64,000 nucleotides of DNA from an uncultured Candidatus Saccharibacteria bacterium (GTDB lineage: Bacteria; Patescibacteriota; Doudnabacteria; UBA920): assembly GCA_964631145.1 (NCBI GenBank), contig CAZVXT010000001.1, forward strand, positions 553,797-617,796, in the 5' to 3' direction. Each line of letters opens with the position of its first letter. The stretch's first letter is position 1. Shown piece after piece: positions 7,108-64,000 of this stretch. A model generated the notes under the pieces. It was not told the DNA's origin and made no database searches. It was given only the letters and a program-made list of their open reading frames with translations. A program made the translations under genes and the position numbers.

Positions 7108-9669
7108 TTATTTTTGTTTAGCAAAGCCCTTAAAATAGCTATCTACTAATTCTGAATCTCGCTTAATCCAAGCCAAATTTATTCTAATCTTTTCGATAGT
7201 CTGAGCAACTGATTGCTTTTCTGTTTTTAAATATGGTTTAGCGTAATTTTGAAACTCCTTTAGTAGCTCATTAGTGCTAAAATCTCTCGCTCCTTCTATG
7301 ATATAGCCCATTAACTTGCCACCCATAAACATTTCTCTTAGTTGTTTATCTCTTGATTTTATTTCTTGCCACATCAAATGTGAAGTTTTTGAAATTAACA
7401 TCCCATGGATAATAGCAATTGGCAGGTCTTGAGGTCTAACTTGTCCAGAAAAAATAAACTCCAGTACTTGCTTGTATTCTTTTTCTCCTTTAGTTCTTAG
7501 CATTGCCGCTACAAGTTGATTTCGTTCTTCTTGAAGAGTAGCTTTTTTGTATTTATCAAATAGCGTGCTTAAAACTTTATTGTCACTGTAACTTGCTACA
7601 GCTAAAATTGCAGTTTTATGATTCCTATCAATACTTTTATTTTTTTCATACAAACTAAATTGTTTTTTTGCATATTGTTCGACTTCTTTCAGCCCAGCCA
7701 AGCCCGCATTACTAATAGCCAAAGATCTTAAAAGCTTTTGACTATCTGTATCATTCTTTTGGGAATTATATCCAAGCCTTGTTAAGACATTTGCGTACAA
7801 TTGTTTTTTCCAATTTAGAAAACTTTCGTAATATTTCTTATTTGAGGTAAAGAATACTCTTTCAATTTGTGCTAAATTCCCTGATATTTCTGCCCATACA
7901 ATATAACTATCTTCTGTCGCAGATATTTGGTTTACCACTTCCAAATATACGTCAGTTTGCACATATCCAGAAATCGCTAATAAGTACAAATTTCTAATTA
8001 AGGCTAATCTATCGTTAGAACCAATCTGCTTATTTTGCATCGCGCTTACTAATAAAGCAAGATATTTAATTGGGTAGTTTGTTATATAAAAACTTTGTTC
8101 ATTTGGATTGAGCTTAATAAATTTATAATTATTCTCGATATGCAAATGTGATATAGCCTTATTTGCTAAAATCATCCCACTCTGTTTATCATGATCAATT
8201 AACGCCTGCACCGGCACTTGCCATAAAGTTTTATCTTCATTCTTTTGAAGTGTAAAACGCTTTTGTGATAACTCTAACCCCTTTTTAGCATCAGTTATAG
8301 TAATAACTGGGTAACCTTTATCCTGTGTCCAAGCTTTTACTAAAGCAGAAATATTCTTATTAGACACCTTATCAAAAGCAGCCCACAAATCTTCCGAACT
8401 CGTATTTCCATAAGAATGCTTTTTTAAATAAATACGAAGTGCGTCCCGAAAATTATCAGCTCCGATATATCCCGAAATCATGCGCAAAATACTCGCTCCT
8501 TTACTATAAGAAATACCGTCAAATATTTCGCTAATCTCATGCGAGTGCTTAACTTCCACTTCTATTGGATGAGTCGAGAGCAAAGCATCTTCCTTAAGTG
8601 CATAAGACTGTTCTGATAATACAAACTTTGTCCAGAATCTCCACTCTGGAAATAACTCATCTACAACCAAATACGCCATATAGCAGGCGAAGCTTTCATT
8701 TAGCCACAAATGCGTCCACCACTTCATTGTGACCAAATTTCCAAACCACTGATGAACTAATTCGTGAGCAATAACTTCTGCAACTCGCTGTCTATTAATC
8801 AAAGATGTGTGCTTTTCATCTACCAATAAAGCAGTCTCTCTAAAAGTAATAGCGCCCCAATTTTCCATAGCGCCAGCTGCAAAATCTGGAATTGCTAATA
8901 AATCTAAGGTTTTAAGAGGATACTTAATACCAAAATAATTTTCTAAAAACTCTAAGCTTCTCTTTGCCGTCTCTAAACTAAAGGCAGCCAAATTGCTTTT
9001 GCCAGGTGTTGTATGAACTTTAATGACTGTGCCATTTTTAGTCTTTGTTTTAATATGATCTAACTCTCCAATTACGTATGCTAATAAATAGCTCGACATT
9101 TTTGGCGTTGATTCAAAATGCACAATCTTTTTATCCTTGCCTAATTTTTCAATTTTCTTTTCTTGAGTATTAGAAACAACTTGTAAATTTTTTGGAACGA
9201 CAATAGACAAATCGAAAATGGCTTTATGACTAGGCTCATCAAAACATGGAAAAGCCCGTCTTGCATCTGTGGCTTCAAATTGAGTGGTAGCCAAATGCTT
9301 TTCTTTTTTGTCATGAGTATACTTACTTCGATAAAACCCGTGGAGTTTATCATTAATACTTCCTGTAAACTCTATACATAAATTACCTTTTCCAAGTAAG
9401 CTAGTCGCAAATGTCAAAATAACTGTTTCAGAATACTTGTCATACGAAACATCTTTGCAATCTATTTGTTTTTTACCAAACTTAAAAACAGCCGAATTGA
9501 TTTCTATGTCGATACAATGCAAAACTATTTCTTTTGTTTTCTTTTTTATATCTATGTTAATAGCTTCAGATCCACTAAATGTAAAATTTTCTAAATCTGG
9601 GACAATTTGAAGAGTATATCTAATTGGCACCACATGATCTGGCAGCCGGTGATTGTTGGATTGTTTCAT
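7108..9669 (-). CDS. pepN: Aminopeptidase N (M1 family zinc metallopeptidase)
   Basis: GAMEN exopeptidase motif (AAGAMENWG) and HELVHQWFG…E zinc-binding HEXXH-E motif. Confidence 0.85.
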   Translation of the reverse strand: MKQSNNHRLPDHVVPIRYTLQIVPDLENFTFSGSEAINIDIKKKTKEIVLHCIDIEINSAVFKFGKKQIDCKDVSYDKYSETVILTFATSLLGKGNLCIEFTGSINDKLHGFYRSKYTHDKKEKHLATTQFEATDARRAFPCFDEPSHKAIFDLSIVVPKNLQVVSNTQEKKIEKLGKDKKIVHFESTPKMSSYLLAYVIGELDHIKTKTKNGTVIKVHTTPGKSNLAAFSLETAKRSLEFLENYFGIKYPLKTLDLLAIPDFAAGAMENWGAITFRETALLVDEKHTSLINRQRVAEVIAHELVHQWFGNLVTMKWWTHLWLNESFACYMAYLVVDELFPEWRFWTKFVLSEQSYALKEDALLSTHPIEVEVKHSHEISEIFDGISYSKGASILRMISGYIGADNFRDALRIYLKKHSYGNTSSEDLWAAFDKVSNKNISALVKAWTQDKGYPVITITDAKKGLELSQKRFTLQKNEDKTLWQVPVQALIDHDKQSGMILANKAISHLHIENNYKFIKLNPNEQSFYITNYPIKYLALLVSAMQNKQIGSNDRLALIRNLYLLAISGYVQTDVYLEVVNQISATEDSYIVWAEISGNLAQIERVFFTSNKKYYESFLNWKKQLYANVLTRLGYNSQKNDTDSQKLLRSLAISNAGLAGLKEVEQYAKKQFSLYEKNKSIDRNHKTAILAVASYSDNKVLSTLFDKYKKATLQEERNQLVAAMLRTKGEKEYKQVLEFIFSGQVRPQDLPIAIIHGMLISKTSHLMWQEIKSRDKQLREMFMGGKLMGYIIEGARDFSTNELLKEFQNYAKPYLKTEKQSVAQTIEKIRINLAWIKRDSELVDSYFKGFAKQK

Positions 9670-9694: not shown

Positions 9695-10255
9695 TTAAAT
9701 TTTAGAAATTAGTTTTTTTAACTTTTTAAAGTCTTTTAAAATTACAGGCCTTAGCTTAGGGCTATATAAAGGTGCTGCGGGATGATAACTTAAAAAATAC
9801 TGAACGCCATCATGCAAAATAATTTTTCCATGATCGTTTGCCATATTTACTTTCTGGTTTAATAAAGTCATTGCTGATACTGCCCCCAAAATCACAATAA
9901 CTTTTGGACTGATAACTTTTATTTGTTGTTGCAAATGAATTTTACCGTGCTCTATGTCTTCCGGCTTAGGAGTAATGTATGTTTGAGGTAAGTACTTAAC
10001 AGCGCTCGTAATAAAAATATCTTTATCAGAAATTTGAATTTGCTCTAACAAATCTCTAAGCAATTTTCCTGCGCGTCCAATAAACGGCTTACCAGTGATA
10101 GATTCATTTTTCCCAGGTGCTTCACCTACTAGCATTATTTTTGAATTAGCACTTCCCTCCCCTGGAACCAAAATTCCCTTTACTCGATTTAGACAAAACT
10201 TACAAGTTAAAATACTCTTTTGAACTTTTTCCAGTTGTTTTTCTTTTAGACCCAT
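9695..10255 (-). CDS. Uracil-DNA glycosylase, family 4
   Basis: GEAPG motif (LVGEAPGKNE), FeS Cys ligands (CKFCLNR), HPAAPLY C-terminal motif. Confidence 0.8.
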   Translation of the reverse strand: MGLKEKQLEKVQKSILTCKFCLNRVKGILVPGEGSANSKIMLVGEAPGKNESITGKPFIGRAGKLLRDLLEQIQISDKDIFITSAVKYLPQTYITPKPEDIEHGKIHLQQQIKVISPKVIVILGAVSAMTLLNQKVNMANDHGKIILHDGVQYFLSYHPAAPLYSPKLRPVILKDFKKLKKLISKI

Positions 10256-21203: not shown

Positions 21204-22324
21204 AAAGAGTTAAGAATAATCTCCATTAATTTATTTTGAAAATTTTGCTTACTAAATTTTTTTGCATGACCAACCATTACTTCTTTCTTATATTTTTTTA
21301 TATCGAAGTTTAATAACACGTCGCTAAAATGATTATTATTAAAATTGTCCAACAACTCTCCTGTCTGCCCCGATATTACCGTTTCCAAACTACCAGCTTT
21401 TGCTAAGGCGATAGTGGGAGTACCACATGCAGCCGCTTCTAAAGGCATTATTCCAAAATCTTCTATTTGCGGAAAAATAAATGCTTTTGCATTTTGGTAT
21501 TCTGTTTTCAATTCTTCATCAGAAACCCTACCAAGAAATTTAATGGTTGGTCCAGCTATAGATTTTAGATATTCTCCTGCCCTACCAGTGCCCGCAACAT
21601 GCAAGTTTAAACCTAACTTATTACAAACTTTGATTACTAAATCGTGTTCTTTGTATGGCGCCAATCTTCCAGCAATCAAAAAATAATCACGGGAAGGTTG
21701 CTGAGCTGGAACAAAAAAATCTGCATCTACAAATGGATACACTACTTCTGCATTCCTACCATAAAAAGTCTTTATTCTATTTCTAACTTCTATAGAATTA
21801 GCAACAAAAGCATTAACTTTAGCAGCCACCATTAAATCCCATTTTTTTAGCCACCAAAAATAAAATCTTGCTAATGGCTTTGTAATGCTTGGTAATTCAT
21901 TTAAAGCATAATCTTCATCAGTCCATAAAAATCTTGTTGGTGTGTGGCAATAATTAACATGAACAGCTTGACCTTTATTTAAGCCTTTAATATAAGCAGA
22001 ACTCGAGCTAATAATTAGGTCGTAATTGGATAATGAATCGAGTTTTAAAGCTACAGGTATTAAAGGAAATAAAAATTGAAACCGAGGAAACAATTTATAC
22101 AGAGTTTGCAAAATACTATAAATAAAAGTTTTTGGTTTTACTTTTAGAGAATCAATAACCTTTTGCTCACCGGCTAAAGTATAAACCGGGCTATCTGGAA
22201 ATAGTTCTATGATTGCTTCAAAAACACGCTCAGCTCCTCCATACTGGGTAAATGAGTCATGTGCTAGTAAAACTTTTTTTGATAGTAACTCTTGTTTAGT
22301 AATCATCTTGTGGTTTTGTGCCAA
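21200..22324 (-). CDS. Glycosyltransferase family 4
   Basis: EDFGIMPLEAAACGTPTIA GT4-like signature; 4-nt overlap with neighbours (operon). Confidence 0.7.
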   Translation of the reverse strand: MAQNHKMITKQELLSKKVLLAHDSFTQYGGAERVFEAIIELFPDSPVYTLAGEQKVIDSLKVKPKTFIYSILQTLYKLFPRFQFLFPLIPVALKLDSLSNYDLIISSSSAYIKGLNKGQAVHVNYCHTPTRFLWTDEDYALNELPSITKPLARFYFWWLKKWDLMVAAKVNAFVANSIEVRNRIKTFYGRNAEVVYPFVDADFFVPAQQPSRDYFLIAGRLAPYKEHDLVIKVCNKLGLNLHVAGTGRAGEYLKSIAGPTIKFLGRVSDEELKTEYQNAKAFIFPQIEDFGIMPLEAAACGTPTIALAKAGSLETVISGQTGELLDNFNNNHFSDVLLNFDIKKYKKEVMVGHAKKFSKQNFQNKLMEIILNSL

Positions 22325-23738
22325 AGAATAATTGATAAAATGTTTTCACTAAAATTTTTACATCCCACCACAAGTTCCAATGTTCGATGTATAAAGTATT
22401 AAGTTTAATTTCTTCTTCAAATGGTAAATCAGGCCAAGACATTTGAGCTAATTGAGAAACTCCAAATATACCTGGCTTAATGCTAAACATTCTACGGTAA
22501 CGGTTTCGATAACGCTCCACCTCATCAATCACATGGGCGCGTGGACCAACCATACTCATATCCCCCTTCAACACATTCCAAAATTGAGGCAATTCATCCA
22601 ATTTAGATTTGCGCAAAAATCTCCCAACTCTTGTAACTCGAGGATCTTGCTTAATCTTTAAAAATGGACCTTCTGCTCCGCCACGATCATTATTTTCCCA
22701 AAGCTTAATTCGCACCGCCTCTGCATCATTACCACCATACTCATCACCCACACTAAGATGCGTATACATACTACGGAATTTATAAAAACGGAAGTCCTTA
22801 CCTCTTCCACCTCGAGGAGCTGCATATATAACCTTACCAGGGCTATCAAGCTTTATTGCAATGTAAATTGCAAGAAATATTGGGGATGTCAAAACTAAAC
22901 ATGCCCCGCTAGCTAGGATATCAAACAATCTTTTTACCACTTTTCCCCAGCCATCAAGCGGGGTATTTTTTAAGCTAATAACTGATGTTCCTCCTAACTC
23001 TATATATTCGACGCTATTTTTTTGAACATTATAAAAATTTGGAACAAAGCTAAAACCCAATCCTTTATTTCTAGCAAACTCAACCAAGTTGCTACTTTGT
23101 GCATCTGATAAAGAAGGATTAGTCTGCAAGACTTCATCAAAACCTTTCTCGTAATATAAAGCTTCTAATTTTTCTAAAACTTGGTCGCCATAATCCAATT
23201 CTGCAACGACCTTATATCCAAAAGTTTTGTCTCGAAGTCTATTTAAAATATGTTTTGATTGCTCATTAATACCGTTAACGATTATCAATCGGTGTAATCC
23301 ATAACCTCGCTTAAAAAACCACTGCTGGATTAATTTCAAAATTAACCTACCTATCCAAACAAAAACTATTGCAAACAACCAAGTTCCTAAAATAATAAAT
23401 CTAGACGGAAAAATTGTATGATCAAAGAAAAATAAAATAATTACAAACAACAGCCCTAAAGAACTACCCAAACTTATTCTTGAAATTTCAAAAATAAAAC
23501 CACGAGTTCCTTTTAAATTATATAAACCTAATAATGCATACCCTAAAATTAAAACCGGAATAATCATCAACAACACTTTTATAAATTGAAGCAAAGGTAA
23601 AGTATAAGCTACTGGACCAACTAATTGCGATTGCTGTAAATGTATTCTTAAATAAAAGGCAGCGATTCCAGCTAAAAACAAAAAAAAGACATCAGCTGGG
23701 ACAGATAATAAATTAAATACAAGTTCTGATTTCTTCAT
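22296..23738 (-). CDS. Undecaprenyl-phosphate sugar phosphotransferase (WbaP/bacterial sugar transferase family)
   Basis: N-terminal TM helices and C-terminal KLDELPQFWNVLKGDMSMVGPRA signature. Confidence 0.85.
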   Translation of the reverse strand: MKKSELVFNLLSVPADVFFLFLAGIAAFYLRIHLQQSQLVGPVAYTLPLLQFIKVLLMIIPVLILGYALLGLYNLKGTRGFIFEISRISLGSSLGLLFVIILFFFDHTIFPSRFIILGTWLFAIVFVWIGRLILKLIQQWFFKRGYGLHRLIIVNGINEQSKHILNRLRDKTFGYKVVAELDYGDQVLEKLEALYYEKGFDEVLQTNPSLSDAQSSNLVEFARNKGLGFSFVPNFYNVQKNSVEYIELGGTSVISLKNTPLDGWGKVVKRLFDILASGACLVLTSPIFLAIYIAIKLDSPGKVIYAAPRGGRGKDFRFYKFRSMYTHLSVGDEYGGNDAEAVRIKLWENNDRGGAEGPFLKIKQDPRVTRVGRFLRKSKLDELPQFWNVLKGDMSMVGPRAHVIDEVERYRNRYRRMFSIKPGIFGVSQLAQMSWPDLPFEEEIKLNTLYIEHWNLWWDVKILVKTFYQLFFGTKPQDDY

Positions 23739-30985: not shown

Positions 30986-31573
30986 TTAAGTTGTGATAGT
31001 TGGATTATTAGAATATCCAGGATGATGAGTTTGCATAACATTCCATATAGACTGGTGATCCCCCGCTTGGATGCCAGAAATAACCTCTTTTAAGACATGC
31101 AAAGAATTATTTTCTCTTTTAAGGTCTTCTGCTTTGTGGTCCGGATTATGTTTTGATGAATAATAATCTATCTCAAAGTCATTTCCAAAAACTATATCAA
31201 AAATATATTTAGTCCTATTCAAGTGGTCATCTGAGGTTACTACAGCAATATTGCGCCAATTATTTGGTAAGCAAAAATCTACCTTACTAAAATATGCATT
31301 ACCTAAAGTGTCTTTAGAGTGATTTTCTTCTAAAATAAAATCTGGATTAATGCCTAATTCTACAGCATATTTCTTCATAGCAAGAGCTTCGGAACAAACA
31401 GGATTTTCTGTAAGTCTATAGGACCACAAACCAGACATTAAAATTTTATTCGCTAATTGTTGCTCAAAAAGTTCAAATCCCTTTCTTACCCTCAAACAAG
31501 AATCGTTAGGCAAACTACCGTCGCTGTTTATACCCCTACCCAAAACTATAATGACATCATATTTATAATTCAT
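30986..31573 (-). CDS. DUF218 (YdcF/ElyC/SanA) family protein
   Basis: YDVIIVLGRGINSDGS…RVRKGFELF…KILMSGL typical DUF218 core. Confidence 0.6.
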   Translation of the reverse strand: MNYKYDVIIVLGRGINSDGSLPNDSCLRVRKGFELFEQQLANKILMSGLWSYRLTENPVCSEALAMKKYAVELGINPDFILEENHSKDTLGNAYFSKVDFCLPNNWRNIAVVTSDDHLNRTKYIFDIVFGNDFEIDYYSSKHNPDHKAEDLKRENNSLHVLKEVISGIQAGDHQSIWNVMQTHHPGYSNNPTITT

Positions 31574-34055: not shown

Positions 34056-34556
34056 CTAAAAATTTTCTTTATCCCAAATTAAAATAGAATAAATGCCAAT
34101 TATCAAAGCTCCCACTGCTATTAATATCGCTGAAAAAAAGAAAATGTTACTCACTAAATAAGTAGACTGCAGTAAATTTAATCTAAATAATATTTGATTC
34201 CAATCATGAGAATCAACATCTCCTGTTAATAAAGGCAATCTCATCGCCAAAGCATCGCCTGCATAAACAGAAACATTAATTAAATTAATAGCTGTCCAAT
34301 AAATCATTATAACCACTGCTTCCCATTGTTGCCGTGCAAACAAAAAGTATCCAGCACAAATTAACGGCACTAAAATTTGCAATACTGATCCTCCTAGTAT
34401 TGTCATAAACTCGCCAAACAACATAAAAATTACATGACCTGCTTCATGGAATAGCAAATCTACATTATCTATAAAATGCCATGACAGCGATGTGTTTGCA
34501 TAATACAGAACATAGATAAATCCAAAAATAATGACTAAGAGTTTAAATATTTTCAT
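34056..34556 (-). CDS. Polytopic membrane protein with intramembrane HExxH (putative M50-like zinc metalloprotease)
   Basis: LLFHEAGHVIFMLFG within a hydrophobic segment; five predicted TM helices. Confidence 0.3.
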   Translation of the reverse strand: MKIFKLLVIIFGFIYVLYYANTSLSWHFIDNVDLLFHEAGHVIFMLFGEFMTILGGSVLQILVPLICAGYFLFARQQWEAVVIMIYWTAINLINVSVYAGDALAMRLPLLTGDVDSHDWNQILFRLNLLQSTYLVSNIFFFSAILIAVGALIIGIYSILIWDKENF

Positions 34557-35345: not shown

Positions 35346-35378
35346 TAAGGCGATAAATTTTATCGCCTTTTTATTTTA
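35346..35378. terminator. Bidirectional intrinsic terminator
   Basis: aggcgata-aattt-tatcgcct hairpin with flanking A/T runs. Confidence 0.6.
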
Positions 35379-35984
35379 TACAACTATTTTTAAAATATCT
35401 AAAGAAATTAAATCGATTCTTAATTGTTCTGCACTTTTATATAATAACGGCATATACCCAATTTTATCTGCACCTCTCAAAGATTGTGGAGAATCGTCAA
35501 TAAAAACTAATTCAGAAGGAGAAACTCCCAATTTATCAAATAACACTTGATAAGCTTGTGGATCGGGTTTTTGAAAACCAATTTCTGCAGATATCAAAAA
35601 AGTATCAAAGTGTTTATCCAAACCTTCTTCCTTTAAAAAAATTCCATTGCTACGAGTATTATTACTTAATAAACCGACTTTTAGTCCAGATTGCTTTAGT
35701 TTCTCTACTATATCAATTACTTGTTGGTTTATTTCCGCTTTACCATTTTCAACTAAATAATCTACAACATTTTTAAAATATTGTTCTTTATTAATTTGCT
35801 TAAGAATAATCTCCCACAATTCCCTATAAGAAATATCTCCTAGATTTGATAACTTGTTATGCTCAAAATAAACCGATTTTAAATCGTCTAAAGGAAAATT
35901 AATTATGCGTGAAATATCAGGAATCATCGGTTTGTGCATACTAATTACTCCCCCATAATCAAATCCCACAGCTTTTATATTCAT
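35376..35984 (-). CDS. HAD-superfamily hydrolase (beta-phosphoglucomutase-like)
   Basis: Motif I VGFDYGGVI, GLLSNN, FIDDS. Confidence 0.65.
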   Translation of the reverse strand: MNIKAVGFDYGGVISMHKPMIPDISRIINFPLDDLKSVYFEHNKLSNLGDISYRELWEIILKQINKEQYFKNVVDYLVENGKAEINQQVIDIVEKLKQSGLKVGLLSNNTRSNGIFLKEEGLDKHFDTFLISAEIGFQKPDPQAYQVLFDKLGVSPSELVFIDDSPQSLRGADKIGYMPLLYKSAEQLRIDLISLDILKIVV

Positions 35985-38675: not shown

Positions 38676-38716
38676 AAACTCATCATAACAAAAAACCGCC
38701 TTCACGGCGATTTTTG

Positions 38717-40124: not shown

Positions 40125-40200
40125 TGGAGCCGTTGTCCGGGATCGAACCGGAGACCTTCTCCTTACCATGGAGATGCTCTACCGACTGAGCTACAACGGC
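40125..40200 (-). tRNA. tRNA-Thr (anticodon GGU)
   Basis: GCCGTTGTAGCTCAGTCGGTAGAGCA, anticodon loop ATGGTAA, T-arm GGTTCGATCCC, CCA encoded. Confidence 0.8.
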
Positions 40201-43721: not shown

Positions 43722-44792
43722 ATGAATCCTGCATTTATACAAATTTTAGAAGAATATCACAAACTAACTAACGAGCTCAGCTCTGGTGAAAATGTAGATA
43801 TTGCTAAACTCGGCAAGCGTCAAGCCGAGCTTTTGCCAGTGGTACAGAAAATTGAGGCACTTCAAAAAATGCAGAGCGATATAGAAGGCAATAAAGAATT
43901 TCTCGACAGCGATGATGAGCAAATGAAAAACATGGCTGCAGAAGAAATCAAAGAGCTGGAGTCAAAAATTATAGAAGTTACTGATCAAATTGAAGAGCTT
44001 CTTTTGCCAAAAGACCCAAACGATGATAAAAATTGTATCTTAGAAATGCGTGCTGGCGCTGGTGGCGACGAAAGTAGCTTGTTTGCAGCAGAAATGTTTC
44101 GAGCCTATTCAAAATATGCAGAAAGCCAAGGCTGGAGCACAAAAATTGTTTCTAGTTCCCGTAGCGATAGCGGTGGCTTTAAAGAAGTGATTTTTGAAAT
44201 TACCGGACGAAGCAGTGGGCAAAGTATGCCTTATTCAAAATTTAAATATGAATCTGGTGTACACAGAGTACAGCGTGTTCCCGAAACAGAAAAAAATGGT
44301 CGTGTACACACCTCAACTATTACTGTCGCTGTAATGCCAGAGCTTAAAGAAAGCGATTATCAAATTGATCCTAAAGATTTAAAGATAGAAGCCACAACCT
44401 CTTCTGGCGCTGGCGGACAAAGTGTTAACACTACATATAGTGCTATTCGTATTGTTCACATCCCTACAGGCATTGTGGCTACATGTCAGGACGAACGCAG
44501 TCAAGCTCAAAATAAAGAAAAAGCGCTAGCAGTAATTCGCGCTCGCGTTTCTAGCTACTACCGCGAGATTGAAGAAGCCAAGCTTACTGCTAATCGCCGT
44601 AGCCAAATTGGGACTGGTGATAGAAGTGAAAAAATCCGCACTTACAATTTCCCACAAGATCGTGTAACTGACCACAGAATAAATAAAAACTTTAATCAGA
44701 TTAGCCTTATCATGGAAGGAGAATTTGAAGATATTATTAGTAGTATCCAAAAAGCTGAAATCGAACTTAAAAAAGAAAACCTAGCCAAGTAA
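43722..44792 (+). CDS. prfA: Peptide chain release factor 1
   Basis: GGQ motif ([23 protein letters not shown]) and RF1-type P-x-T region (RVPETE). Confidence 0.85.
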
Positions 44793-56203: not shown

Positions 56204-56608
56204 TTATTTCAAGTTTACAGTAGCACCAGCTTCTTCTAATTTCTTTTTCAATTCTTCAGCTTCAGCTTTTGGAGCACCTTCTTTAACTACTTGAGGAGCG
56301 CCATCTACCATGTCTTTAGCTTCTTTTAAGCCTAGACCAGTAACTTCACGTACTACTTTAATAACATTGATTTTGTTATCACCAGCAGATACTAATTCAA
56401 CGTTAAATTCGTCTTTTTCTTCTGCTGCTGCAGCGCCTGCACCCGCAGGCATAGCACCCATCATCATAGGAGCTGCTGCTGACACACCAAATTTATCTTC
56501 TAGAACTTTTACTAATTCAGAAAGTTCTAATACAGACAATTTTTCTATTTGACCTACTAAGTCTGCAAATTTTGCAGGAACTTCTACAGTCTTGTTTTCT
56601 TCTGACAT
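56204..56608 (-). CDS. rplL: 50S ribosomal protein L7/L12
   Basis: N-terminal dimerisation helix, Ala/Gly-rich hinge, C-terminal [24 protein letters not shown]. Confidence 0.9.
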
Positions 56609-56632
56609 TATTATATAAATTAATTAATAAAA

Positions 56633-57148
56633 TTATTTTTGAGCAACGGCATTAAGCACATTGATCAAACCACGAATGTTTCCAGCAAGAACATTTACGA
56701 AGCCAGAAACAGGAGCATTGATTGTACCAACGAGTTTTGCTCGTAGTTCGTCTTTGCTTGGAAGATCAGCCAAAGCCATCATCTGTGTACTATCTGCAAA
56801 TTTACCATCAACAACACCGCTCAAAATATTAATAGTTTTAATATCTTTGGAGATGTTTTTGATTATACGTGCAGGAGCTACCTCGTCTTGCTCTGAAACA
56901 GATAAAATCACAGGTAATTTATAATCTAATTCAGAAACTTGAATACCTTTTGCTTCAAAAGCTTTTTTGATCAAAGGAATTTTATAAACTTTTGCCTTTA
57001 CCCCTTCGCTACCCAAAGCACGACGAAGCTTATCCATTTCGACTACTGTAGTACCCCGGTATTCCGCTAACACTATAGATTTTGCAGATTCCAAACGAGA
57101 TGTTAACTCTTGGAAGTCTTGTTCTTTTTGTTGTCTTGTTTTTGCCAT
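56633..57148 (-). CDS. rplJ: 50S ribosomal protein L10
   Basis: MAKTRQQKEQDFQELTSRLESAKSIVLAEYRGTTVVEMDKLRR. Confidence 0.85.
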   Translation of the reverse strand: MAKTRQQKEQDFQELTSRLESAKSIVLAEYRGTTVVEMDKLRRALGSEGVKAKVYKIPLIKKAFEAKGIQVSELDYKLPVILSVSEQDEVAPARIIKNISKDIKTINILSGVVDGKFADSTQMMALADLPSKDELRAKLVGTINAPVSGFVNVLAGNIRGLINVLNAVAQK

Positions 57149-57210
57149 ATATTTCTTTCACTCTATAAAATACAGAGTATAATATCCGACCTTTTAACTG
57201 CATATCCGAA

Positions 57211-57234
57211 AATAAAAAACTCGGTTTCCCGAGC
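57211..57234 (-). promoter_or_regulatory. Terminator-like hairpin in rplJ leader (candidate L10 autoregulatory attenuator)
   Basis: On minus strand GCTCGG-GAAA-CCGAG followed by UUUUUUAUUUU, ~65 nt upstream of rplJ start, with no minus-strand gene ending there. Confidence 0.4.
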
Positions 57235-57369
57235 CAAATTATAATTACACTTTCTTTAAAAGGTGTAAAATATAATGTTCCTCGGTGGGCTTCTAACAAA
57301 TTTGATAGAATTTAAAGCCGTTTGGCCACCAACTGTCTTTGGATATTTAGTTAATAGTATTATACTACA

Positions 57370-57398: not shown

Positions 57399-57430
57399 AG
57401 CAAAAGATTTATTAGGGGGTATCTATACAT

Positions 57431-57763
57431 ATGGAAGGTGAAATACTGCTCCAACCTGAAGGCTCTGGGGTGCAATTAACTACTAGAAATTTATTTTTTA
57501 GTGCAGACTACATAATTAAAGGTTTTTGCTTTGAAAACCAAGACCATCACATGATTCTATGCTTTTTAAGCAAACTTGCTGGGAGAAAAGCTATAAAAAA
57601 ATTATTAGAACATGGGGTGATTAACGAATCTTTTGCTATAAAATTTGAAGAATATATTAAAAATTCAAATATTTCTGAATCTGAAAATGTTTATGATGAT
57701 ATACCATTTTATTGGGATAAAAAAAATTTAGTCCCCGAACAAAGATCAGAGTCTGTGCATTAA
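57431..57763 (+). CDS. Hypothetical protein
   Basis: GGGGG RBS; 110 aa. Confidence 0.45.
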   Translation: MEGEILLQPEGSGVQLTTRNLFFSADYIIKGFCFENQDHHMILCFLSKLAGRKAIKKLLEHGVINESFAIKFEEYIKNSNISESENVYDDIPFYWDKKNLVPEQRSESVH

Positions 57764-57774
57764 AATTATAAAAA

Positions 57775-57811
57775 TTTAAAAGCGACGAAATTTCGTCGCT
57801 TTATTTTTATA
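57775..57811. terminator. Bidirectional intrinsic terminator
   Basis: agcgacg-aaattt-cgtcgct hairpin plus T-run. Confidence 0.65.
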
Positions 57812-57815
57812 ACAA

Positions 57816-58295
57816 TTATTTACCCACCCAAGGATTACCATCATCGACACCACTATAAACACCAGAGGCTTTATTATTACGATCTATAACTTCTTGCTTT
57901 GCTTGCTTTGCGATTCTTTCCATATCCTCATAATCTAAAACTGGAAAATTACTCATTTTTTGAGCTGCCTCCCAAGCCAGGTTGAAGCCAACTTTCCAAT
58001 CTGGATTGTTTTGAGTAAAGCTCTCTTCTTTTAAAGCTTCTATTAAATCTTCTTTTACTCGCTCTATTCTATCTTCGGATACCTCATTATGATTTTGAGA
58101 AAGTGAGGATCTAAGTGCTTCGGAGTTTATAGCTAAAGCTGGGTTGATATCTTTTGCTGCTTGAGCGTAGTTATCTACTGCTTCTTTAGACCAAGCCTCG
58201 GACATTTCCTTTTCTTCTACTGTTCCCTCTTGACTCATTTGGTGCAAGTCTTCTATATCTGATCTTGCCCCATTAAATTTATCGAATTCACTCAT
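57816..58295 (-). CDS. Acidic hypothetical protein
   Basis: 159 aa, strongly acidic, helical. Confidence 0.45.
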   Translation of the reverse strand: MSEFDKFNGARSDIEDLHQMSQEGTVEEKEMSEAWSKEAVDNYAQAAKDINPALAINSEALRSSLSQNHNEVSEDRIERVKEDLIEALKEESFTQNNPDWKVGFNLAWEAAQKMSNFPVLDYEDMERIAKQAKQEVIDRNNKASGVYSGVDDGNPWVGK

Positions 58296-58394
58296 AATTT
58301 ATATATTAATTACTTTTATTATAACTTTTTTATAAAAATGGTTTTCCACAGCTTAATTAAAAAGAGCAATATTCCTATTGCTCTATTTTGGACT

Positions 58395-58679
58395 TCAAAG
58401 ATCAAGGCTTTGAAAGTCATGATTTGGTTTTGTGCTTTGCCACAAGATTGTGATCAAAGCCGCAACGCTCAACAACCCGAAAAGGATCAAAGTCAAAACT
58501 CCGGCTTGAGTTGCAAATTCTTCACCAAATCTTTGCATTGCGAGCAATGTCATAATGTCTTGAATTGGCGATGGAATTGTTTGTCCAGGACCAGCAATGA
58601 TGTGCTGAATCCATGCCACCAGAAAATTGGCAGCAAACAATGCAATGCTCAAAATTTTCCAATCAAAAATTTCTTTCAT
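58395..58679 (-). CDS. Hypothetical membrane protein
   Basis: AGGAGG RBS (rc of cctcct at 58686); two TM helices; preferred over overlapping + ORF. Confidence 0.4.
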   Translation of the reverse strand: MKEIFDWKILSIALFAANFLVAWIQHIIAGPGQTIPSPIQDIMTLLAMQRFGEEFATQAGVLTLILFGLLSVAALITILWQSTKPNHDFQSLDL

Positions 58680-58749
58680 TTTAACCTCCTATTTAAAAAT
58701 TTTAATACGATAATAAAGTTTAGGCAAATAAATTAACAGGTAATTTAAT

Positions 58750-58914
58750 TTACCATCTCTGACGACCAACTTTTCGTTGTTCGCGAAATTTTAATGTTTT
58801 ATTTTTATCATGAACCCGTCGCTCTCGACGCTTTTGCCTAGATTCGTTTTTAGATGCAACTGCATCAAAATTTGGATCCAAAGCTTTTATTTCGTTAGAG
58901 ACAGATAGCATCAT
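58750..58914 (-). CDS. rpsU: 30S ribosomal protein S21-like
   Basis: MLSVSNEIKALDPNFDAVASK…RQKRRERR…KTLKFREQRKVGRQRW aligns with S21 pattern; longer ORF to 58962 would abut the tRNA-like element. Confidence 0.35.
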   Translation of the reverse strand: MMLSVSNEIKALDPNFDAVASKNESRQKRRERRVHDKNKTLKFREQRKVGRQRW

Positions 58915-58965
58915 ATGTTCGCACCAGCCCTTGCTGATTAAGCTTTTTCTTATTTTTTTCATAAG

Positions 58966-59035
58966 GCACTAACAGGAATTGAACCTGTTATTCTAGATTA
59001 CTAGTCTAGCATATGTCCATTTGTACTTTAGCGCC
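58966..59035 (-). tRNA. tRNA-like element with AGU anticodon (possible tRNA-Thr(AGU) or pseudo-tRNA)
   Basis: Acceptor GGCGCTA/TAGTGCC, 3-bp D-stem, perfect anticodon stem CTAGA/TCTAG with loop CUAGUAA, T-arm ACAGG-TTCAATT-CCTGT; no CCA encoded. Confidence 0.35.
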
Positions 59036-59192
59036 AATATTCAATTTTGGAAGCACTACTTTTTGTAATACTCTCAAAAAAGAAGTGGTGTTGTATGCAG
59101 TTCTAAAATCTTTTCTCTAATTTTAGATCCATACCGGCACCACAGCCGAACTTGTTTTGGGACTTACACCCCCGGATCAGTTTCCGGATGCA

Positions 59193-59546
59193 TTACCAAC
59201 ATCTCGTATAAAACACAGTGTTGGTTGCCGTTGGTTGCTCGAAAGACATTTTGCTTTCCCACCACGAACCAAACGCCTTGCAGTAGCCAAGTTTTTTGAG
59301 ACGCTTATCACGCTCAGCAACTACAGCTTCTGATCTACGCTTGGCAGTGGTATAAAGCTTACCTTCCGAGTCCGTGCACTCACCGTTAGAATCAAATCTA
59401 CCAGGTGCAGGGCAATCTTCAACTCCGCTGCGAAACTCCTCCCACAAATCAGCCACTGCTTTTTGGGCAGCAAAATGATTTGCAAAAGTATTTCCAACGA
59501 CAACAATAGCGGCAAAAACAACGATAACAGCAATAATAGTTTTCAT
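59193..59546 (-). CDS. Secreted Cys-rich hypothetical protein
   Basis: GGAGG RBS; signal peptide MKTIIAVIVVFAAIVVVGNTFA; six Cys; locally elevated G+C. Confidence 0.45.
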   Translation of the reverse strand: MKTIIAVIVVFAAIVVVGNTFANHFAAQKAVADLWEEFRSGVEDCPAPGRFDSNGECTDSEGKLYTTAKRRSEAVVAERDKRLKKLGYCKAFGSWWESKMSFEQPTATNTVFYTRCW

Positions 59547-59586
59547 AATTTTATTTTCCTCTTTTTTATTTTTTATTTTAGACCAA

Positions 59587-59742
59587 TGGAGATGGCGGGA
59601 ATCGAACCCGCATCCAAGAATTTTAATACCTATTTATGCAGATTCAACTAAGTTTGCAGTCCTTAGTAACGCAAGTCCTTCTCGTGGTTGGTTATCCTTA
59701 CTTTCTACCCGGCTAAAATCCCTGTCGAAGCCTGTCACCCCC
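59587..59742 (-). ncRNA. ssrA: tmRNA-like gene (ssrA), unusually short (~156 nt), CCA not encoded
   Basis: 5' GGGGGUGACAGGCUUCGACAGGGAUUU matches the tmRNA 5' consensus; 3' GCGGGUUCGAUUCCCGCCAUCUCCA forms T-arm plus acceptor; G3-U70 Ala identity pair present; candidate tag ORF GCA AAC UUA GUU GAA UCU GCA UAA. Confidence 0.5.
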
Positions 59743-59789
59743 TTACCAATTTCCGAAATTTCTTTATAAAGCAATTCCGAAAAAAAGTG

Positions 59790-59822
59790 CGAAGCTAAAC
59801 AGCTTCGCAAGATATTAACCGT
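59790..59822 (-). terminator. Intrinsic terminator downstream of HicB-like gene
   Basis: On minus strand gcgaagc-uguuua-gcuucgc followed by U7. Confidence 0.6.
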
Positions 59823-59826
59823 GATG

Positions 59827-60525
59827 TTAATACCTGATTCTAAACTCTGCCCTTAAACCTAAGATTTGATTGAGATAATCTAAAGGTTCTACATCTACTG
59901 GCTTATCATAGACCAGCACAAACTGATCACTACGAACCATGGATGCTGGCTTGTTTTTTACCACAGCCATCATCCCTTTTTGCCTCTGACGACAAACACT
60001 ACAATCCCCATAACATCCATAAACTACAGTCATCACCATGTCATCAAGCACAGCAATCTGTCTAGAATTTTCCCATCCTGGGACAGTGATTAACCCAATC
60101 ACATTCCAGTCTTTTGAGTATGCCGCTGTTTGCAAGGAAATTTGCTTATCCCAAGCCTTCCTTTCAAGTTTTAGATTATACATTTCCCGTTTAAAATTAA
60201 TATTACGGACCAAAGATTGCAATGCCAGTTCTTCACTTCTACCAATTCCTCTACTTTGTTCAAACTCCAAACACTTTGCTAAATAAATTTTTCCCGAAGG
60301 CAAATCGTGAGTATTATAAGTAACAGTTAATTCTTCTGCACTATAAAGTCTATCTGGCATATCAGCAAAATATTCAGCATCTATAAATTCTTCAACTTTA
60401 TTTTGTAAATCTTTTTGAGCGTCTTCAATATTTTTACCTAATCCAAAAACGGTTGGAAACTGTTTGCATGTAGAGATAAATCCTTCTGAGGTTTTGGTGT
60501 TTCTTACGGTTCAAATTGTTTTCAT
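59827..60525 (-). pseudogene. HicB-like N-terminal domain protein interrupted by an in-frame TGA at codon 5 (ORF track reports only 59827..60360)
   Basis: GGAGG RBS 5 nt before ATG 60523-60525; reading MKTI*TVRNTKTSEGFISTCKQFPTVFGLGKNIEDAQKDLQNKVEEFIDAEYFAD continues in frame into MPDRLY…; the 55 codons between are stop-free and resemble a HicB/UPF0150 fold. Confidence 0.45.
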
Positions 60526-60581
60526 AATGCCTCCAAAAATTTGTAATTTTTATTTTTCCAAACAAACGAATATTCACTTGC
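60519..60581 (-). repeat. Promoter/5'-leader repeat copy A (shared with 61873..61940)
   Basis: 35-nt identical core ttttatttttccaaacaaacgaatattcacttgct plus shared ttcataat…cctcca SD region. Confidence 0.6.
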
Positions 60582-60620
60582 TGGGAAAAATTCCCAAAGT
60601 CACGTGCTTTGGGTTAATGA

Positions 60621-60962
60621 CTAATCATCATAGTCATAGTTTAAGTAAGTGTAATTTTCATCGCAATCCGAGACAGGAAAACCAAAATCTCTTAACTTTT
60701 GCTCATCCATTATTGGATAATCAAAAAGTTCAGCAATTGGAAATATCCTTGGGGTTACTACGTCCATCTCTTGCACATGTAATAACTCTTGATGAGAAGT
60801 GCTGGTGCAATAACAACCACACTTTTCTGTATCATCCCAAGTTAGATTATCAGCAACAAAGCTAACAATCGACTTTCTAATAGATTCCAGACTTTCATCT
60901 GGAGCTTCGACAGTATGATAGTTATTTTGACCATACTCCTTTAATACAATCATTAGTTTCAT
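60621..60962 (-). CDS. Hypothetical protein
   Basis: AGGAGGG RBS before ATG at 60962 (MKLMIVLKEYGQ…); preferred over overlapping + ORF. Confidence 0.4.
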   Translation of the reverse strand: MKLMIVLKEYGQNNYHTVEAPDESLESIRKSIVSFVADNLTWDDTEKCGCYCTSTSHQELLHVQEMDVVTPRIFPIAELFDYPIMDEQKLRDFGFPVSDCDENYTYLNYDYDD

Positions 60963-61122
60963 AGCCCTCCTATATAACTTTTTTCTGTTACTTGCTAATT
61001 CGCCGGTCAGCATATAAATTAGTCAAGTGTCCTAAAAGTTTTTTCCCTCTTTTTTAATCGACGTAAACACATCGACTAAAAAAGAGGTGCGAAGTTTTTT
61101 AGGCTTCGCATAAGTTTTCAAG

Positions 61123-61332
61123 TTAATAGAATTTCTTATCTTTAAAAGTGTTTATACTGCCGCCCCAATCGTCCTTTAACCATCCAATATACATACCGAG
61201 CTTAATAGCATCTGCTGTAGATATTGAATCAGGGACTTGGATATGATAACCACCTTTATTAAACGAAATATCTCCTTTAACTTTTAATGTTAAATCTACG
61301 AGTCGGGATAATGCCCAGTCAGGATTAAACAT
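61123..61332 (-). CDS. Hypothetical small protein (69 aa)
   Basis: GGAGGT RBS before MFNPDWALSRL…; intrinsic terminator downstream. Confidence 0.4.
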   Translation of the reverse strand: MFNPDWALSRLVDLTLKVKGDISFNKGGYHIQVPDSISTADAIKLGMYIGWLKDDWGGSINTFKDKKFY

Positions 61333-61469
61333 AATACCTCCACTACTTTCTTCTGTCTCTCGCTTACACACCAAAAGGCATTATGCAAGTCGAGTGTCCG
61401 GAAAGAACCTAATTACAAGTATAATTACTTGGACCATAGTTTAGTTTTGGTATTATGAACACCTTTTGT

Positions 61470-61661
61470 TTACTTATTGATTACTAATATAAACAACTCT
61501 CGTAAACAATATACTGCTACACCAACCATTAAAATCATAAATAAAGTTAGCATAATCATTTGTCCAGTATCGTGATTTGCTGCGGCTTCTTTGGAAGCTG
61601 TAGCTACAGCCACACACCCAACAGTTGAAATAATACACCCCAATATATAAAAAATCTTCAT
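61470..61661 (-). CDS. Small hydrophobic membrane peptide (63 aa)
   Basis: GAGGAGG RBS before MKIFYILGCIISTVGCVAVA…; two TM segments. Confidence 0.4.
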   Translation of the reverse strand: MKIFYILGCIISTVGCVAVATASKEAAANHDTGQMIMLTLFMILMVGVAVYCLRELFILVINK

Positions 61662-61746
61662 AAATCCTCCTCGATATAATCCCAATTTTTAAAAGACTAA
61701 ACAGTTAATCTTCTAAAAAAGAGGTGCAATATTAATTGCACAGGTG

Positions 61747-61878
61747 TTATAACACACGAATAAATCGTGCACACTCAGCGGCAATTGCCGGACCATAAGT
61801 GTTATATAAATGAGCAAAGCTCAATGAACCTACTACAATAAGCATGGCTCCCAATAATACTTCTACAATAAATTTCAT
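61747..61878 (-). CDS. Small hydrophobic peptide (43 aa) driven by repeat copy B
   Basis: GGAGG RBS before MKFIVEVLLGAMLIVVGSLSFAHLYNTYGPAIAAECARFIRVL; stem-loop terminator follows. Confidence 0.4.
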   Translation of the reverse strand: MKFIVEVLLGAMLIVVGSLSFAHLYNTYGPAIAAECARFIRVL

Positions 61879-61940
61879 AATTTCCTCCAGATTTTTTATT
61901 TAAAATTTTATTTTTCCAAACAAACGAATATTCACTTGCT
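61873..61940 (-). repeat. Promoter/5'-leader repeat copy B
   Basis: Same 35-nt core as 60547..60581 plus SD region. Confidence 0.6.
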
Positions 61941-62232
61941 TAGAAAAATGGCAAATCAAGTTTGCCGAGGTTTTTTGTCCCATTTACAATAGCGTGGAAC
62001 AAGTCTTTGGATAGTTCGACCATGCGCGCGGTAGCGAACAGTCCTAGTATCACATTTCGGACAACCGCAGTGTTCGTCTTCCAACTTGGCTGCGGCAACT
62101 TTAGGTGCGACATAAATGGTTATTTTTATGTTCATCATTTAAAGTATATTGCGGTCTCGCCTTGGTTTATAAACTATCGGCTAAATAATTTTTCTTTCCC
62201 CAAGATCCCCGCACTGTTTTTTTGAAACTTGC

Positions 62233-62478
62233 TTAGGCAGCAGCAACGGTTACTTTCTTCGCAGGTTTTCGTTTGAACTCTTGTCGCTTTTTATGAAGCT
62301 TCATAAGAGAATCATAACGATCACCCGCTCGATACCGCCGCGCGTCGGCATGGCTAACGATATTAGCTGCAGTTGCCGCGTTTAATTGAGCATCGATGCC
62401 AGCAAACTTCAATTTTGGTCTATGTTGAACCATATAAGCTAATTCAACTTCAACCAATTTTTCGATTTTGGTTATCAT
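62233..62478 (-). CDS. Hypothetical basic protein (81 aa)
   Basis: AGGAGG RBS; locally elevated G+C; 5'-UTR hairpin ccacc/ggtgg precedes the RBS. Confidence 0.4.
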   Translation of the reverse strand: MITKIEKLVEVELAYMVQHRPKLKFAGIDAQLNAATAANIVSHADARRYRAGDRYDSLMKLHKKRQEFKRKPAKKVTVAAA

Positions 62479-63059
62479 TATCTTTTCCTCCTATATAACC
62501 CACCAGCCACGGTGGTTTTATTTATTTTTATTTTCTTTTTCGAGATGACGAATTTACACTCATCCCCTCAAAAAAGGAGCCCAACTTAAAGTTGAGCATA
62601 AGTATGTGTTAGATGCTTTCCACAGCACCCTGCTGTAATTGGAGTTACAGCTTTCGCTTCCACTGCAGAGGAACCGCATTTTGTCTGACCTTCTCAGAAG
62701 ATGTCTTGCATAGACAATCCCAGCATCAATTTTTATCAAAATGATGACTTACACAAAATAGATTTTGACTAGACCTAGGAGTATATATATAGTTCATTAC
62801 CTTAGGGCAATAAAAGGCATTCTAGTATGCCACCTGACTTCCGAAGAACGAAGTCATTGGTCTAAGATATATACTTAATCAGGGTTATTTTGCAAAATTG
62901 CAAAAGTGACACGCAACCCTCCTAAATATTTTTAGCGTTCTATTTTAGATCGCCTATTTTAATTTTCAAATTTTGAAAACTAGAATAGACGGATGATTTA
63001 AGTTTGAAGTTTAAATCACCTCAATAAAATTTGTCTTGCGACATAAATTACCTCCTTTG

Positions 63060-63760: not shown

Positions 63761-64000
63761 GATTGTTATTTACTTTTCAAAATTTCAGCTTACAAAAGTA
63801 TTATACACGAATAATTATTTTTGTCAAGAAGTTTTAACAAAATTTTGTATATTTTTCTTTAAACATTGTTTTTATTAAGTATTTTGTAATAAATTATTGA
63901 TATTTTATATAAACATAATAAGATAAATCATGTAATTATTTGTTTTGGATAAAAATAAAAAAGCATCAATTGCTTTTGTAGAGTAAATCTACTTTGCAGT

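Follow-up and report, generated by a model that had tools for sequence, protein, structure and literature searches.

An orphan tRNA-Thr(AGU)-like element in a genome-specific cassette beside a shortened tmRNA gene of a Patescibacteria genome

In a 64-kb stretch of contig CAZVXT010000001.1 (hereafter the window, i.e. the whole of the DNA analysed), we investigated a small transfer RNA (tRNA)-like element, which carries the threonine anticodon AGU and lies on the minus strand next to a small open reading frame (ORF), ORF70. The sequence of the element, its class of fold, its deviations from genuine tRNAs, its uniqueness and its genomic context are directly observed. The reading that we prefer, and to which we give an even chance, is that of an orphan and probably imported or relic gene of the tRNA-Thr(AGU) type, which would be transcribed by read-through, excised from its transcript and used poorly or not at all in decoding. 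The L10 protein places the window in the Patescibacteria, the nearest species being metagenome-assembled genomes named 'Candidatus Doudnabacteria' or 'Saccharibacteria' with at most 76% identity; the same contig is also present in the Logan assembly SRR12712853 and in an NCBI record.

When the whole 64-kb window was searched against 4227 Rfam families, the tRNA covariance model RF00005 matched the minus strand at 58964..59035 with a score of 48.2 bits, for a gathering score of 29. The corresponding E-value of 3.1e-07 rules out a chance cloverleaf and, judged on its sequence, the element is beyond doubt tRNA-derived. The initial annotation had described a tRNA-type cloverleaf at this place, with a good acceptor stem, a perfect anticodon stem, a canonical T-arm and a 3-bp D-stem, and this description was borne out position by position. 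Its 5' end, 59035, was also recovered, while the 3' end given by Rfam lies 2 nt beyond the position 58966 that had been proposed. The acceptor stem presents 7 bp, six Watson-Crick pairs and G4-U69, and the anticodon and T stems are perfect with 5 bp each, all 17 acceptor, anticodon and T pairs being intact. The 7-nt anticodon loop reads C32-U33-A-G-U-A37-A38 (CUAGUAA), and the Rfam alignment confirmed the anticodon AGU that had been read from it. Y32, U33 and R37 are canonical, as are G18 and G19, the G53-C61 pair and U54, U55, C56, R57 and A58 of the T loop UUCAAUU; the variable loop has 4 nt. The D stem is limited to three pairs (G10-U25, U11-A24 and A12-U23), all A/U or G-U, followed by a C13.A22 mismatch, and no CCA is encoded at the 3' end.

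Covariance-model and heuristic tRNA finders disagree on the element, which is called by Rfam/Infernal and not by ARAGORN. At default settings ARAGORN called the four regular tRNAs of the window and left the element uncalled; with cut-offs relaxed from -ps95 to -ps70, as had been recommended in the initial annotation, no canonical call was obtained either, and only a 99-nt nonsense fold appeared at -ps80 and -ps70. The absence of a structure-based tRNA call, which had been named there as a reason to give up the proposal, was thus found with one program and not with the other. A reading of the plus strand, with the anticodon ACU, was rejected: this strand gave merely a 19-bit chance match to an unrelated family and no tRNA match, and the T loop and G18G19 are present on the minus strand alone.

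The element was compared with 40 genuine full-length tRNAs collected from the window and from 83 related Patescibacteria loci (1.35 Mb in all), in a scan which used a small covariance model built from the window's own tRNAs. With RF00005 the regular tRNAs of the window score 61.6-68.4 bits, compared to 48.2 for the element, to which our own covariance model R1 gives 69.4 bits. Position 8 is U in 40/40 of the baseline tRNAs and A in the element (0/40), position 21 is A in 39/40 and C in the element (0/40), and position 48, where the element has A, is A in 1/40; position 14, which is A in 40/40, is A in the element too. The three unusual residues, A8, C21 and A48, all strike the tertiary core, namely the 8-14-21 triple and the 15-48 Levitt pair. 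The GC content of the element is 0.37, against 0.50-0.71 in the 40 tRNAs, and is essentially equal to the local genomic background of 0.33-0.38. In the thermodynamic fold, the cloverleaf of the element reaches −15.1 kcal/mol for a minimum of −18.9 kcal/mol, i.e. a gap of 3.8 kcal/mol, and its D stem has an ensemble probability of 0, whereas the cloverleaves of the two host tRNA-Thr are at −28.9 and −31.0 kcal/mol, near their own minima. Two other features are ordinary in the phylum, since a 3-bp D stem is present in 11/40 of the baseline tRNAs and an encoded CCA is missing in 15/40, the four regular tRNAs of the window all encoding it.

No relative of the element was found in any of the collections searched, which included 80 rplJ loci. 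An exact full-length search in 81 loci returned the same contig only, Rfam applied to the 8 closest loci detected no homologue, the three contigs with ORF117 homologues (see below) contained no tRNA-like element at E<=1, and our own covariance model found no homologue over the 1.35 Mb of the 83 related loci. A pattern scan of JGI metagenomes gave 6 matches, none of them a relative: two identical canonical tRNA-Thr(AGU) genes of another sequence type and four non-tRNA sequences. Three specific patterns gave 0 matches in IMG/VR, and a loose pattern (AGU loop plus T loop) retrieved 70 viral contigs, 69 of which were called as tRNA-Thr(AGU) by ARAGORN, corresponding to 19 distinct sequences at most 68% identical to the element. 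One viral family (GCCCTTATAGCTCAGTGGTAGAGC...) and its close variants make up most of the 69 calls (contigs L092-L161), and the frequency of viral tRNA-Thr(AGU) contrasts with how seldom this anticodon is met in cellular bacteria. A34 tRNA-Thr genes carried by accessory DNA therefore form a known class, in which the element is a deviant without kin.

Alternatively, the element may work as an accessory tRNA-Thr(AGU): after excision and CCA-tailing it would be charged by threonyl-tRNA synthetase (ThrRS), and its unmodified A34, or inosine 34 (I34) if TadA is permissive, would boost the reading of ACU. We regard this as a serious but rather unlikely candidate. G35, U36, G1-C72 and U73 match the host tRNA-Thr genes, U73 being found in 5/5 tRNA-Thr of the host and its relatives, and both G35 U36 and G1-C72 are ThrRS determinants. 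At the pair 2:71 the element has G2-C71. All 19 distinct viral sequences and 5/5 Patescibacteria tRNA-Thr have C2-G71 instead, which in E. coli is a determinant for ThrRS. ACU is the commonest threonine codon (336/714, 47%), and an AGU anticodon without modification strongly favours ACU over ACC (PMC11066159); M. capricolum uses an unmodified tRNA-Thr(AGU) (PMC3711424). Considering that the window encodes tRNA-Thr(GGU) and tRNA-Thr(UGU), the ACN box is covered without the element. A34 tRNA genes other than Arg(ACG) are 'extremely rare' in bacteria (PMC11066159), in agreement with the rarity asserted in the initial annotation, and the main text of a tRNA-gene survey of 95 complete Patescibacteria genomes makes no mention of AGU or A34 tRNAs (PMC13011429). 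E. coli TadA is highly specific for the ACG loop (PMC11066159), and positions 35 and 36 of the loop CUAGUAA depart from the Arg ACG anticodon on which this recognition depends; the loop thus lacks the features expected of a TadA substrate. No tadA, rnz, cca or thrS gene was found within the 64-kb window.

A functional tRNA would thus be consistent with a cloverleaf above the curated covariance threshold, with the perfect anticodon arm and the threonine-type positions, with the ACU preference and its mycoplasmal and viral precedents (the 69 viral genes being canonical), with 17 non-D pairs kept intact, unlike the outcome of neutral decay, and with a 3-bp D stem and a missing CCA that are unexceptional in the phylum. 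It is opposed by A8, C21 and A48, which break the 8-14-21 and 15-48 contacts, by the low GC content and a cloverleaf that is not the favoured fold, by G2-C71, by the two isoacceptors that already serve the box, and by the lack of an own promoter or terminator and of any counterpart in the relatives examined. Of the three readings left open by the initial annotation, that of an ordinary genuine tRNA-Thr is disfavoured on account of the core, the GC content, the 2:71 pair, the GGU and UGU isoacceptors and the absence of relatives, while our preferred reading, an imported or relic tRNA with a processable shape, stays close to the other two, a pseudo-tRNA and a processing or mobile-element remnant.

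As to its origin, the element shows 58% identity with each of the two host tRNA-Thr. Neutral decay was simulated by AT-biased random substitution of both host tRNA-Thr genes in 100,000 runs. All 17 pairs remained intact in ~1e-3 of the runs with 20% of the sites substituted and in 4-7e-5 with 30%; at the observed 42% this occurred in at most 1e-5 of the runs, with a mean of 8.4 intact pairs. Because the 17 pairs survive so rarely, a neutrally decayed host duplicate is excluded. A functionless tRNA-Thr copy, altered by a G34-to-A change and AT-biased mutations, would account for the near-background GC content, the three invariant core positions hit, the weak D arm and the lack of conservation, and it is hardly credible in view of the 58% identity, the simulations and the different 2:71 identity pair. 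Two possibilities are left: a gene acquired from elsewhere that is still young, or selection acting on the helices. A derivation from the tRNA-Glu(UUC) found upstream of rplJ in more distant Patescibacteria was also considered and rejected, as the identity of at most 63% is no better than with Trp or Gln tRNAs; the 5' acceptor strand GGCGCUA and the 4-nt variable loop are common to tRNA-Glu(UUC) and the element.

On the minus strand, a terminator is followed by a transfer-messenger RNA (tmRNA) gene, ORF117, a spacer, the element, ORF70, ORF94, a second terminator and ORF159, beyond which lie ORF110 on the opposite strand and then the L10 leader and rplJ-rplL. ORF117 is the last gene common to the relatives, its homologues (57-60% identical) being located on short groundwater contigs, and DNA similarity to the relatives stops exactly at its stop codon. 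In the ORF117-homologue contigs and in the relative L007, the gene is followed by a terminator and then by a kinase-like gene, recognised by weak Pkinase/APH matches. No remnant of this kinase-like gene was found in the window. Since the similarity ends at the ORF117 stop and the window lacks any trace of the kinase-like gene, we consider that a genome-specific cassette is formed by the element and the genes that follow it. By this comparison the interval between ssrA and rplJ is a hypervariable spot (in the relatives, L007 7650-10000 and L089 859-2432), and the element belongs to an orphan cassette within it.

Searches of 5.8 billion and 1.84 billion proteins left ORF70, ORF94 and ORF159 as orphans, and tblastn against 80 rplJ loci gave no match for ORF177, 117, 70, 94, 159, 110, 196 or 137. 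The codon scores of the orphans, 0.22-0.48, are to be compared with a host mean of 0.38 and a mean of −0.09 for spurious ORFs, and by this measure the orphan ORFs look like real, resident genes. Such small orphan ORFs with host-like codon usage run through 57400-59190 and 59827-64000 at the hypervariable spot.

An integration scar, in which the tRNA would have been an attachment site and the copy now seen a rebuilt attL-type tRNA, would explain why the element stands at the exact end of the similarity to the relatives, beside orphan genes and 550 nt from the tmRNA gene, tmRNA genes being classic integration targets. This explanation is nonetheless largely refuted and in our opinion very improbable: no integrase, mobile-element or phage gene lies nearby, the 3' half of the tRNA is not repeated in the window, a permissive Rfam scan revealed no sub-threshold tRNA fragment, and no tRNA suitable as a target occurs at this position in the relatives. 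Phage relatives of the region were also sought: none of 50,697 phage records matched 57400-64000 in blastn, and searches of viral contigs with ORF117 and ORF159 gave no relatives.

A Y RNA of the YrlA type, for which an adjacent TROVE (Rsr) gene and a Ro-binding stem would be expected, was likewise rejected, since no TROVE ORF was found among the long ORFs of the window and no Y-RNA family in the permissive Rfam scan. The ends of the element form a closed acceptor stem, and the TROVE gene of the relative L007 adjoins the tmRNA gene and not a tRNA-like element.

We then considered how the element may be expressed. Sigma-70-type boxes are recognisable elsewhere in the window, at the RNase P RNA gene (TTGACA-17-TATAAT), at tRNA-Trp (TATAAT), at tRNA-Thr(UGU) (TACAAT) and at the rplJ leader (12/12). 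A pattern scan found no −10-like hexamer (TAnnWT) in the 70 nt before the element, and a scan for terminators found no such structure after it, whereas the host tRNA clusters end in a hairpin and a T-run. Compared with the corresponding gaps of L089-L091, the T-run CUUCUUUUUUGAG before the element is kept and the terminator stem is lost, no terminator being found there by the scan. By these consensus scans the element, with its intact acceptor/T-arm minihelix, has no promoter- or terminator-like site of its own and lies in a putative unit bracketed by terminators (59788...58363).

On this basis, the following course of events is proposed. The element would have arrived with, or been left by, the orphan cassette that replaced the kinase-like gene between the tmRNA gene and rplJ. 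Lacking its own promoter and terminator, it would be transcribed by read-through from the tmRNA/ORF117 unit, the stem of the ORF117 terminator being lost. RNase P, the RNA of which is encoded in the window (Rfam), would recognise the element at G1, and the 3' end would undergo trimming and CCA-tailing at U73, along the pathway that the CCA-less tmRNA must also use; both steps are expected because the acceptor/T-arm stack, G18G19 and the T loop are intact. As the tmRNA and 15/40 of the relatives' tRNAs have no encoded CCA, trimming and CCA addition exist in the clade and, if the tmRNA works, the cell can trim and CCA-tail CCA-less precursors. Excision would release a small tRNA-like RNA and leave two separate pieces of the transcript, one with ORF117 and the other with ORF70-ORF94. 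The excised RNA would add little or nothing to threonine decoding, because of A8, C21 and A48, the weak D arm, G2-C71 and the regular GGU and UGU isoacceptors.

The same cuts lead to another possibility, namely that the element has been selected as a tRNA-like punctuation mark at which RNase P and an RNase Z-type activity separate the ORF117 and ORF70-ORF94 messages. If ORF70 starts at 58962, its messenger RNA (mRNA) would begin 1 nt before the AUG and be essentially leaderless. An SD-like (Shine-Dalgarno-like) motif is present in 8/43 long genes only, and in six genes a −10 box ends precisely 6 nt ahead of the ATG, the background being ~1 per position; leaderless initiation is clearly predicted to be in use in this genome. 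The boxes of the leaderless type are TATAAT or TAAAAT, often with an upstream TG, and such starts are found, e.g., at 7108..9669(-), 9695..10255(-), 22296..23738(-), 30986..31573(-), 34056..34556(-), 35376..35984(-) and 43722..44792(+). The D arm and core matter less to RNase P and RNase Z than the acceptor/T-arm module.

We consider selection as a punctuation mark distinctly unlikely. It agrees with an acceptor/T-arm module that is perfect where the D arm and core are degenerate, with the position between same-strand ORFs of a terminator-bracketed unit without own signals, with helices kept too well for neutral drift from a host copy, and with a U73 that is 1 nt from the first ATG of ORF70 in a genome with leaderless starts. 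The leaderless part, however, depends on a doubtful ORF70 start, a perfect anticodon arm would be unnecessary for a processing mark, and there is no conservation in the relatives that would indicate selection; tRNA punctuation is established for organelles and is not known to be so for bacterial operons of the free-living type. A combined version, in which a tRNA-shaped module was recruited as operon punctuation, creating a leaderless ORF70 mRNA, and the excised RNA may serve as an ACU-tuned tRNA-Thr with unmodified A34, seems to us unlikely as well.

The doubt about the ORF70 start comes from its own sequence. Codons 1-16 have a codon score of −0.08, like non-coding DNA, and codons 17-70 a score of 0.33, like host genes, the 16 codons being a small sample; moreover, an SD-like GGTG lies 7 nt before M17, and among the ATGs of ORF70 those at codons 17/18 alone have one. 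Because the first 16 codons score as non-coding and GGTG precedes M17, the true start is probably ATG 58914 or 58911, 49-52 nt past the element, this evidence being suggestive and not decisive. The direct abutment of element and reading frame reported by the initial annotation is even tighter with the Rfam boundaries, the discriminator U being 1 nt from the longest ATG, and is nevertheless probably a longest-ORF artefact. A promoter-like sequence TGGACA-18-TAGAAT (10/12) lies inside the element at 58990-59019 minus, from the D loop to the 3' strand of the anticodon stem, and would start transcription ~20 nt before the first ATG of ORF70, as a consensus match in a region where the count of such matches equals the shuffle expectation.

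The ORF had been labelled S21-like, and this label found no support. ORF70 has no Pfam or NCBIfam family (E<=0.1) and no PHROG or PADLOC family, no S21 chain matches it among all PDB sequences at E<=10, BLASTP gave no alignment to E. coli S21, and ORF70 itself is the sole match among 5.8 billion proteins. Its assignment to ribosomal protein S21 was therefore rejected; the basic C-terminal tail is the sole source of the label.

Several observations weigh against the reading of an imported or relic gene that is read through, excised and hardly used. None of the neighbours belongs to an integrase, phage or defence family (Pfam, NCBIfam, PHROGs, PADLOC), the window contains no att-like (attachment-site-like) repeat, i.e. 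no second copy of the 3' half of the tRNA with up to 3 mismatches allowed, and the host-like codon usage of the orphan neighbours speaks against a very recent import from a dissimilar donor. The AGU anticodon pairs by Watson-Crick rules with ACU and U73 fits the host tRNA-Thr, which leaves room for a decoding role; the perfect anticodon stem and canonical loop, needless for a mere processing substrate, also hint at decoding in the past or present. Co-transcription, processing and poor charging are predicted steps, and the promoter and terminator scans behind them are consensus matches in a region where the count of promoter-like sites is no higher than in shuffled sequences. Finally, the tRNA set and the gene absences apply to the window, which is 64 kb of a ~654-kb genome.

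Table 1 Features of the element and of its surroundings in the window.
Feature	Position	Strand	Remarks
Terminator of upstream gene	59809-59788	minus	precedes tmRNA
tmRNA, 159 nt	59584..59742	minus	RF00023 60.9 bits; head of the putative unit; no encoded CCA
ORF117, small secreted or membrane-type protein	59193..59546	minus	upstream of the element
T-run CUUCUUUUUU	~59085-59076	minus	spacer between ORF117 and element; tail of the ORF117 terminator in relatives
8-bp hairpin AGUAUUAC-AAAAA-GUAGUGCU	59072-59052	minus	spacer between ORF117 and element
tRNA-like element, 72 nt	58964..59035	minus	GGCGCUAAAGUACAAAUGGACAUAUGCUAGACUAGUAAUCUAGAAUAACAGGUUCAAUUCCUGUUAGUGCCU
Acceptor stem	59035-59029 / 58971-58965	minus	
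D arm	59026-59011	minus	
Anticodon arm	59009-58993	minus	
Anticodon AGU (A34 G35 U36)	59002-59000	minus	plus strand ACT at 59000-59002
T arm	58988-58972	minus	
Discriminator U73	58964	minus	
ORF70, small basic orphan protein, 70 aa	58750..58962	minus	longest start ATG 58962
ORF94, orphan membrane-type protein	58395..58679	minus	strong SD AGGAGGT; last gene of the putative unit
Terminator-like hairpin and T-run	58363..58384	minus	closes the putative unit tmRNA-ORF117-element-ORF70-ORF94
tRNA-Thr(GGU)	40125-40200		ARAGORN
tRNA-Thr(UGU)	39105-39180		ARAGORN

The tmRNA gene that heads the putative unit, ~550 nt from the element, is itself unusual in being strongly shortened. The relative L007 has a tmRNA of 131 nt at 7516-7646 (+) (RF00023, 56.9 bits), and in both L007 and the window the gene is located ~2.4 kb upstream of rplJ, whereas the Magasanikbacteria relative L046 has a normal tmRNA of 404 nt at 12847-13250 (-) with 133.7 bits. 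In the shrunken tmRNAs the two halves of the tRNA-like domain lie only ~60-88 nt apart, too close to accommodate the pseudoknots PK2-PK4. The window and L007 copies have a common internal block (...AAGGA...ACUUGCG...); the window tmRNA has a possible tag frame ending in ...ANLVESA-stop, and L007 has no obvious in-frame stop. ARAGORN calls neither of the two shrunken copies, and no description of shortened tmRNAs from Patescibacteria came up in a literature search. The shrunken tmRNA may be more novel than the tRNA-like element. In L007 a TROVE-domain (Ro60/Rsr-like) protein is encoded at 5293-6591 (+) (E 1.1e-17), ~0.9 kb upstream of the mini-tmRNA; bacterial Rsr genes usually adjoin Y RNAs with tRNA-like modules.

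Other features of the window were noted in the course of the analysis. The rplJ-rplL genes (56204-57360 minus) have an L10 leader (RF00557, 46 bits) and a TTGACA-16-TATAAT promoter that is perfect; they are isolated, without rplK-rplA before or rpoB after them, and orphan ORFs lie on both flanks. A direct repeat of 47 nt, 94% identical, occurs at 60545-60591 and 61903-61949, with a partial copy at 57574-57588; it is intergenic, upstream of small orphan ORFs, and the independent Logan contig assembly ends at ~60577, inside the first copy. An ORF with a zeta-toxin domain (E 6e-32; 37974-38765 minus) lies directly after tRNA-Trp (38717-38790 minus); its longest frame overlaps the tRNA, and its true start is probably the ATG after the tRNA-Trp terminator. 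The edge of the window carries the gene of a TrwB/TraG-type type IV coupling protein (219-2153 minus), adjoining SecDF, SecA and an M1 peptidase, and LexA is encoded at 50723-51334.

For annotation, we recommend recording the element as a low-confidence or pseudo tRNA-Thr(AGU) and leaving it out of the isoacceptor count; the S21 label is unsuitable for ORF70. Should the element function as a tRNA, the few bacterial non-Arg A34 tRNAs would be joined by one from the Patescibacteria whose core is strikingly non-canonical, and which could serve to explore how much tRNA core the reduced translation apparatus of the candidate phyla radiation (CPR) needs. If it is a processing module, it would represent organelle-style tRNA punctuation in a bacterium using leaderless mRNAs. 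Either punctuation or an ACU-tuned A34 tRNA-Thr would, if true, be a first for Patescibacteria. The element is an aberrant accessory tRNA gene, of a kind already known, and a tmRNA shrunk to 131-159 nt together with the host-like orphan genes tells more about the plasticity of CPR genomes than the element does.

Among known systems, the tRNA-Thr(AGU) of Mycoplasma capricolum (PMC3711424, PMC11066159) resembles the element in being an AGU gene of a small AT-rich genome with tRNA-Thr(UGU) alongside, while it is canonical and essential and replaces the GGU isoacceptor in a minimal set. The element, in contrast, has a tRNA-Thr(GGU) in the same window, an off-specification body (A8, C21, A48, G2-C71, GC 0.37) and is found in one genome only. 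The viral tRNA-Thr(AGU) genes present the same A34 threonine anticodon and the same anticodon-loop and T-loop motifs, are located on accessory DNA and mostly have no encoded CCA (17/19). Unlike the element, every one of them presents U8, G1-C72/C2-G71 and a regular D arm and is called by ARAGORN, and in the searches made here no viral gene or viral homologue was found among the neighbours of the element.

The eukaryotic cytoplasmic tRNA-Thr(AGU), which acquires I34 via ADAT2/3, is alike in the AGU anticodon, the CUAGUAA loop, the missing encoded CCA and a G2-C71-type acceptor; the first five acceptor pairs and U73 of human tRNA-Thr-AGT may also be similar to those of the element. Nevertheless, its D arm, variable loop and T stem are unrelated, and the element lies in a bacterial contig with host-like neighbours.

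With tRNA pseudogenes the element has in common a score below that of genuine tRNAs (48 vs 62-68 bits), lost invariant positions, background GC and no conservation, and it differs from them in keeping all 17 pairs of three helices, a state not produced by neutral decay of a host gene. Organelle punctuation, plant mitochondrial t-elements and the operon tRNAs of E. coli tufB are known tRNA-like processing contexts. With these, and with tRNAs in bacterial mRNA operons generally, the element is comparable as a tRNA-shaped module within a putative polycistron, with an acceptor/T-arm intact for RNase P and RNase Z and the rest degenerate; it departs from them in its perfect anticodon arm and in the lack of conservation indicating selection, and its cleavage is a prediction.

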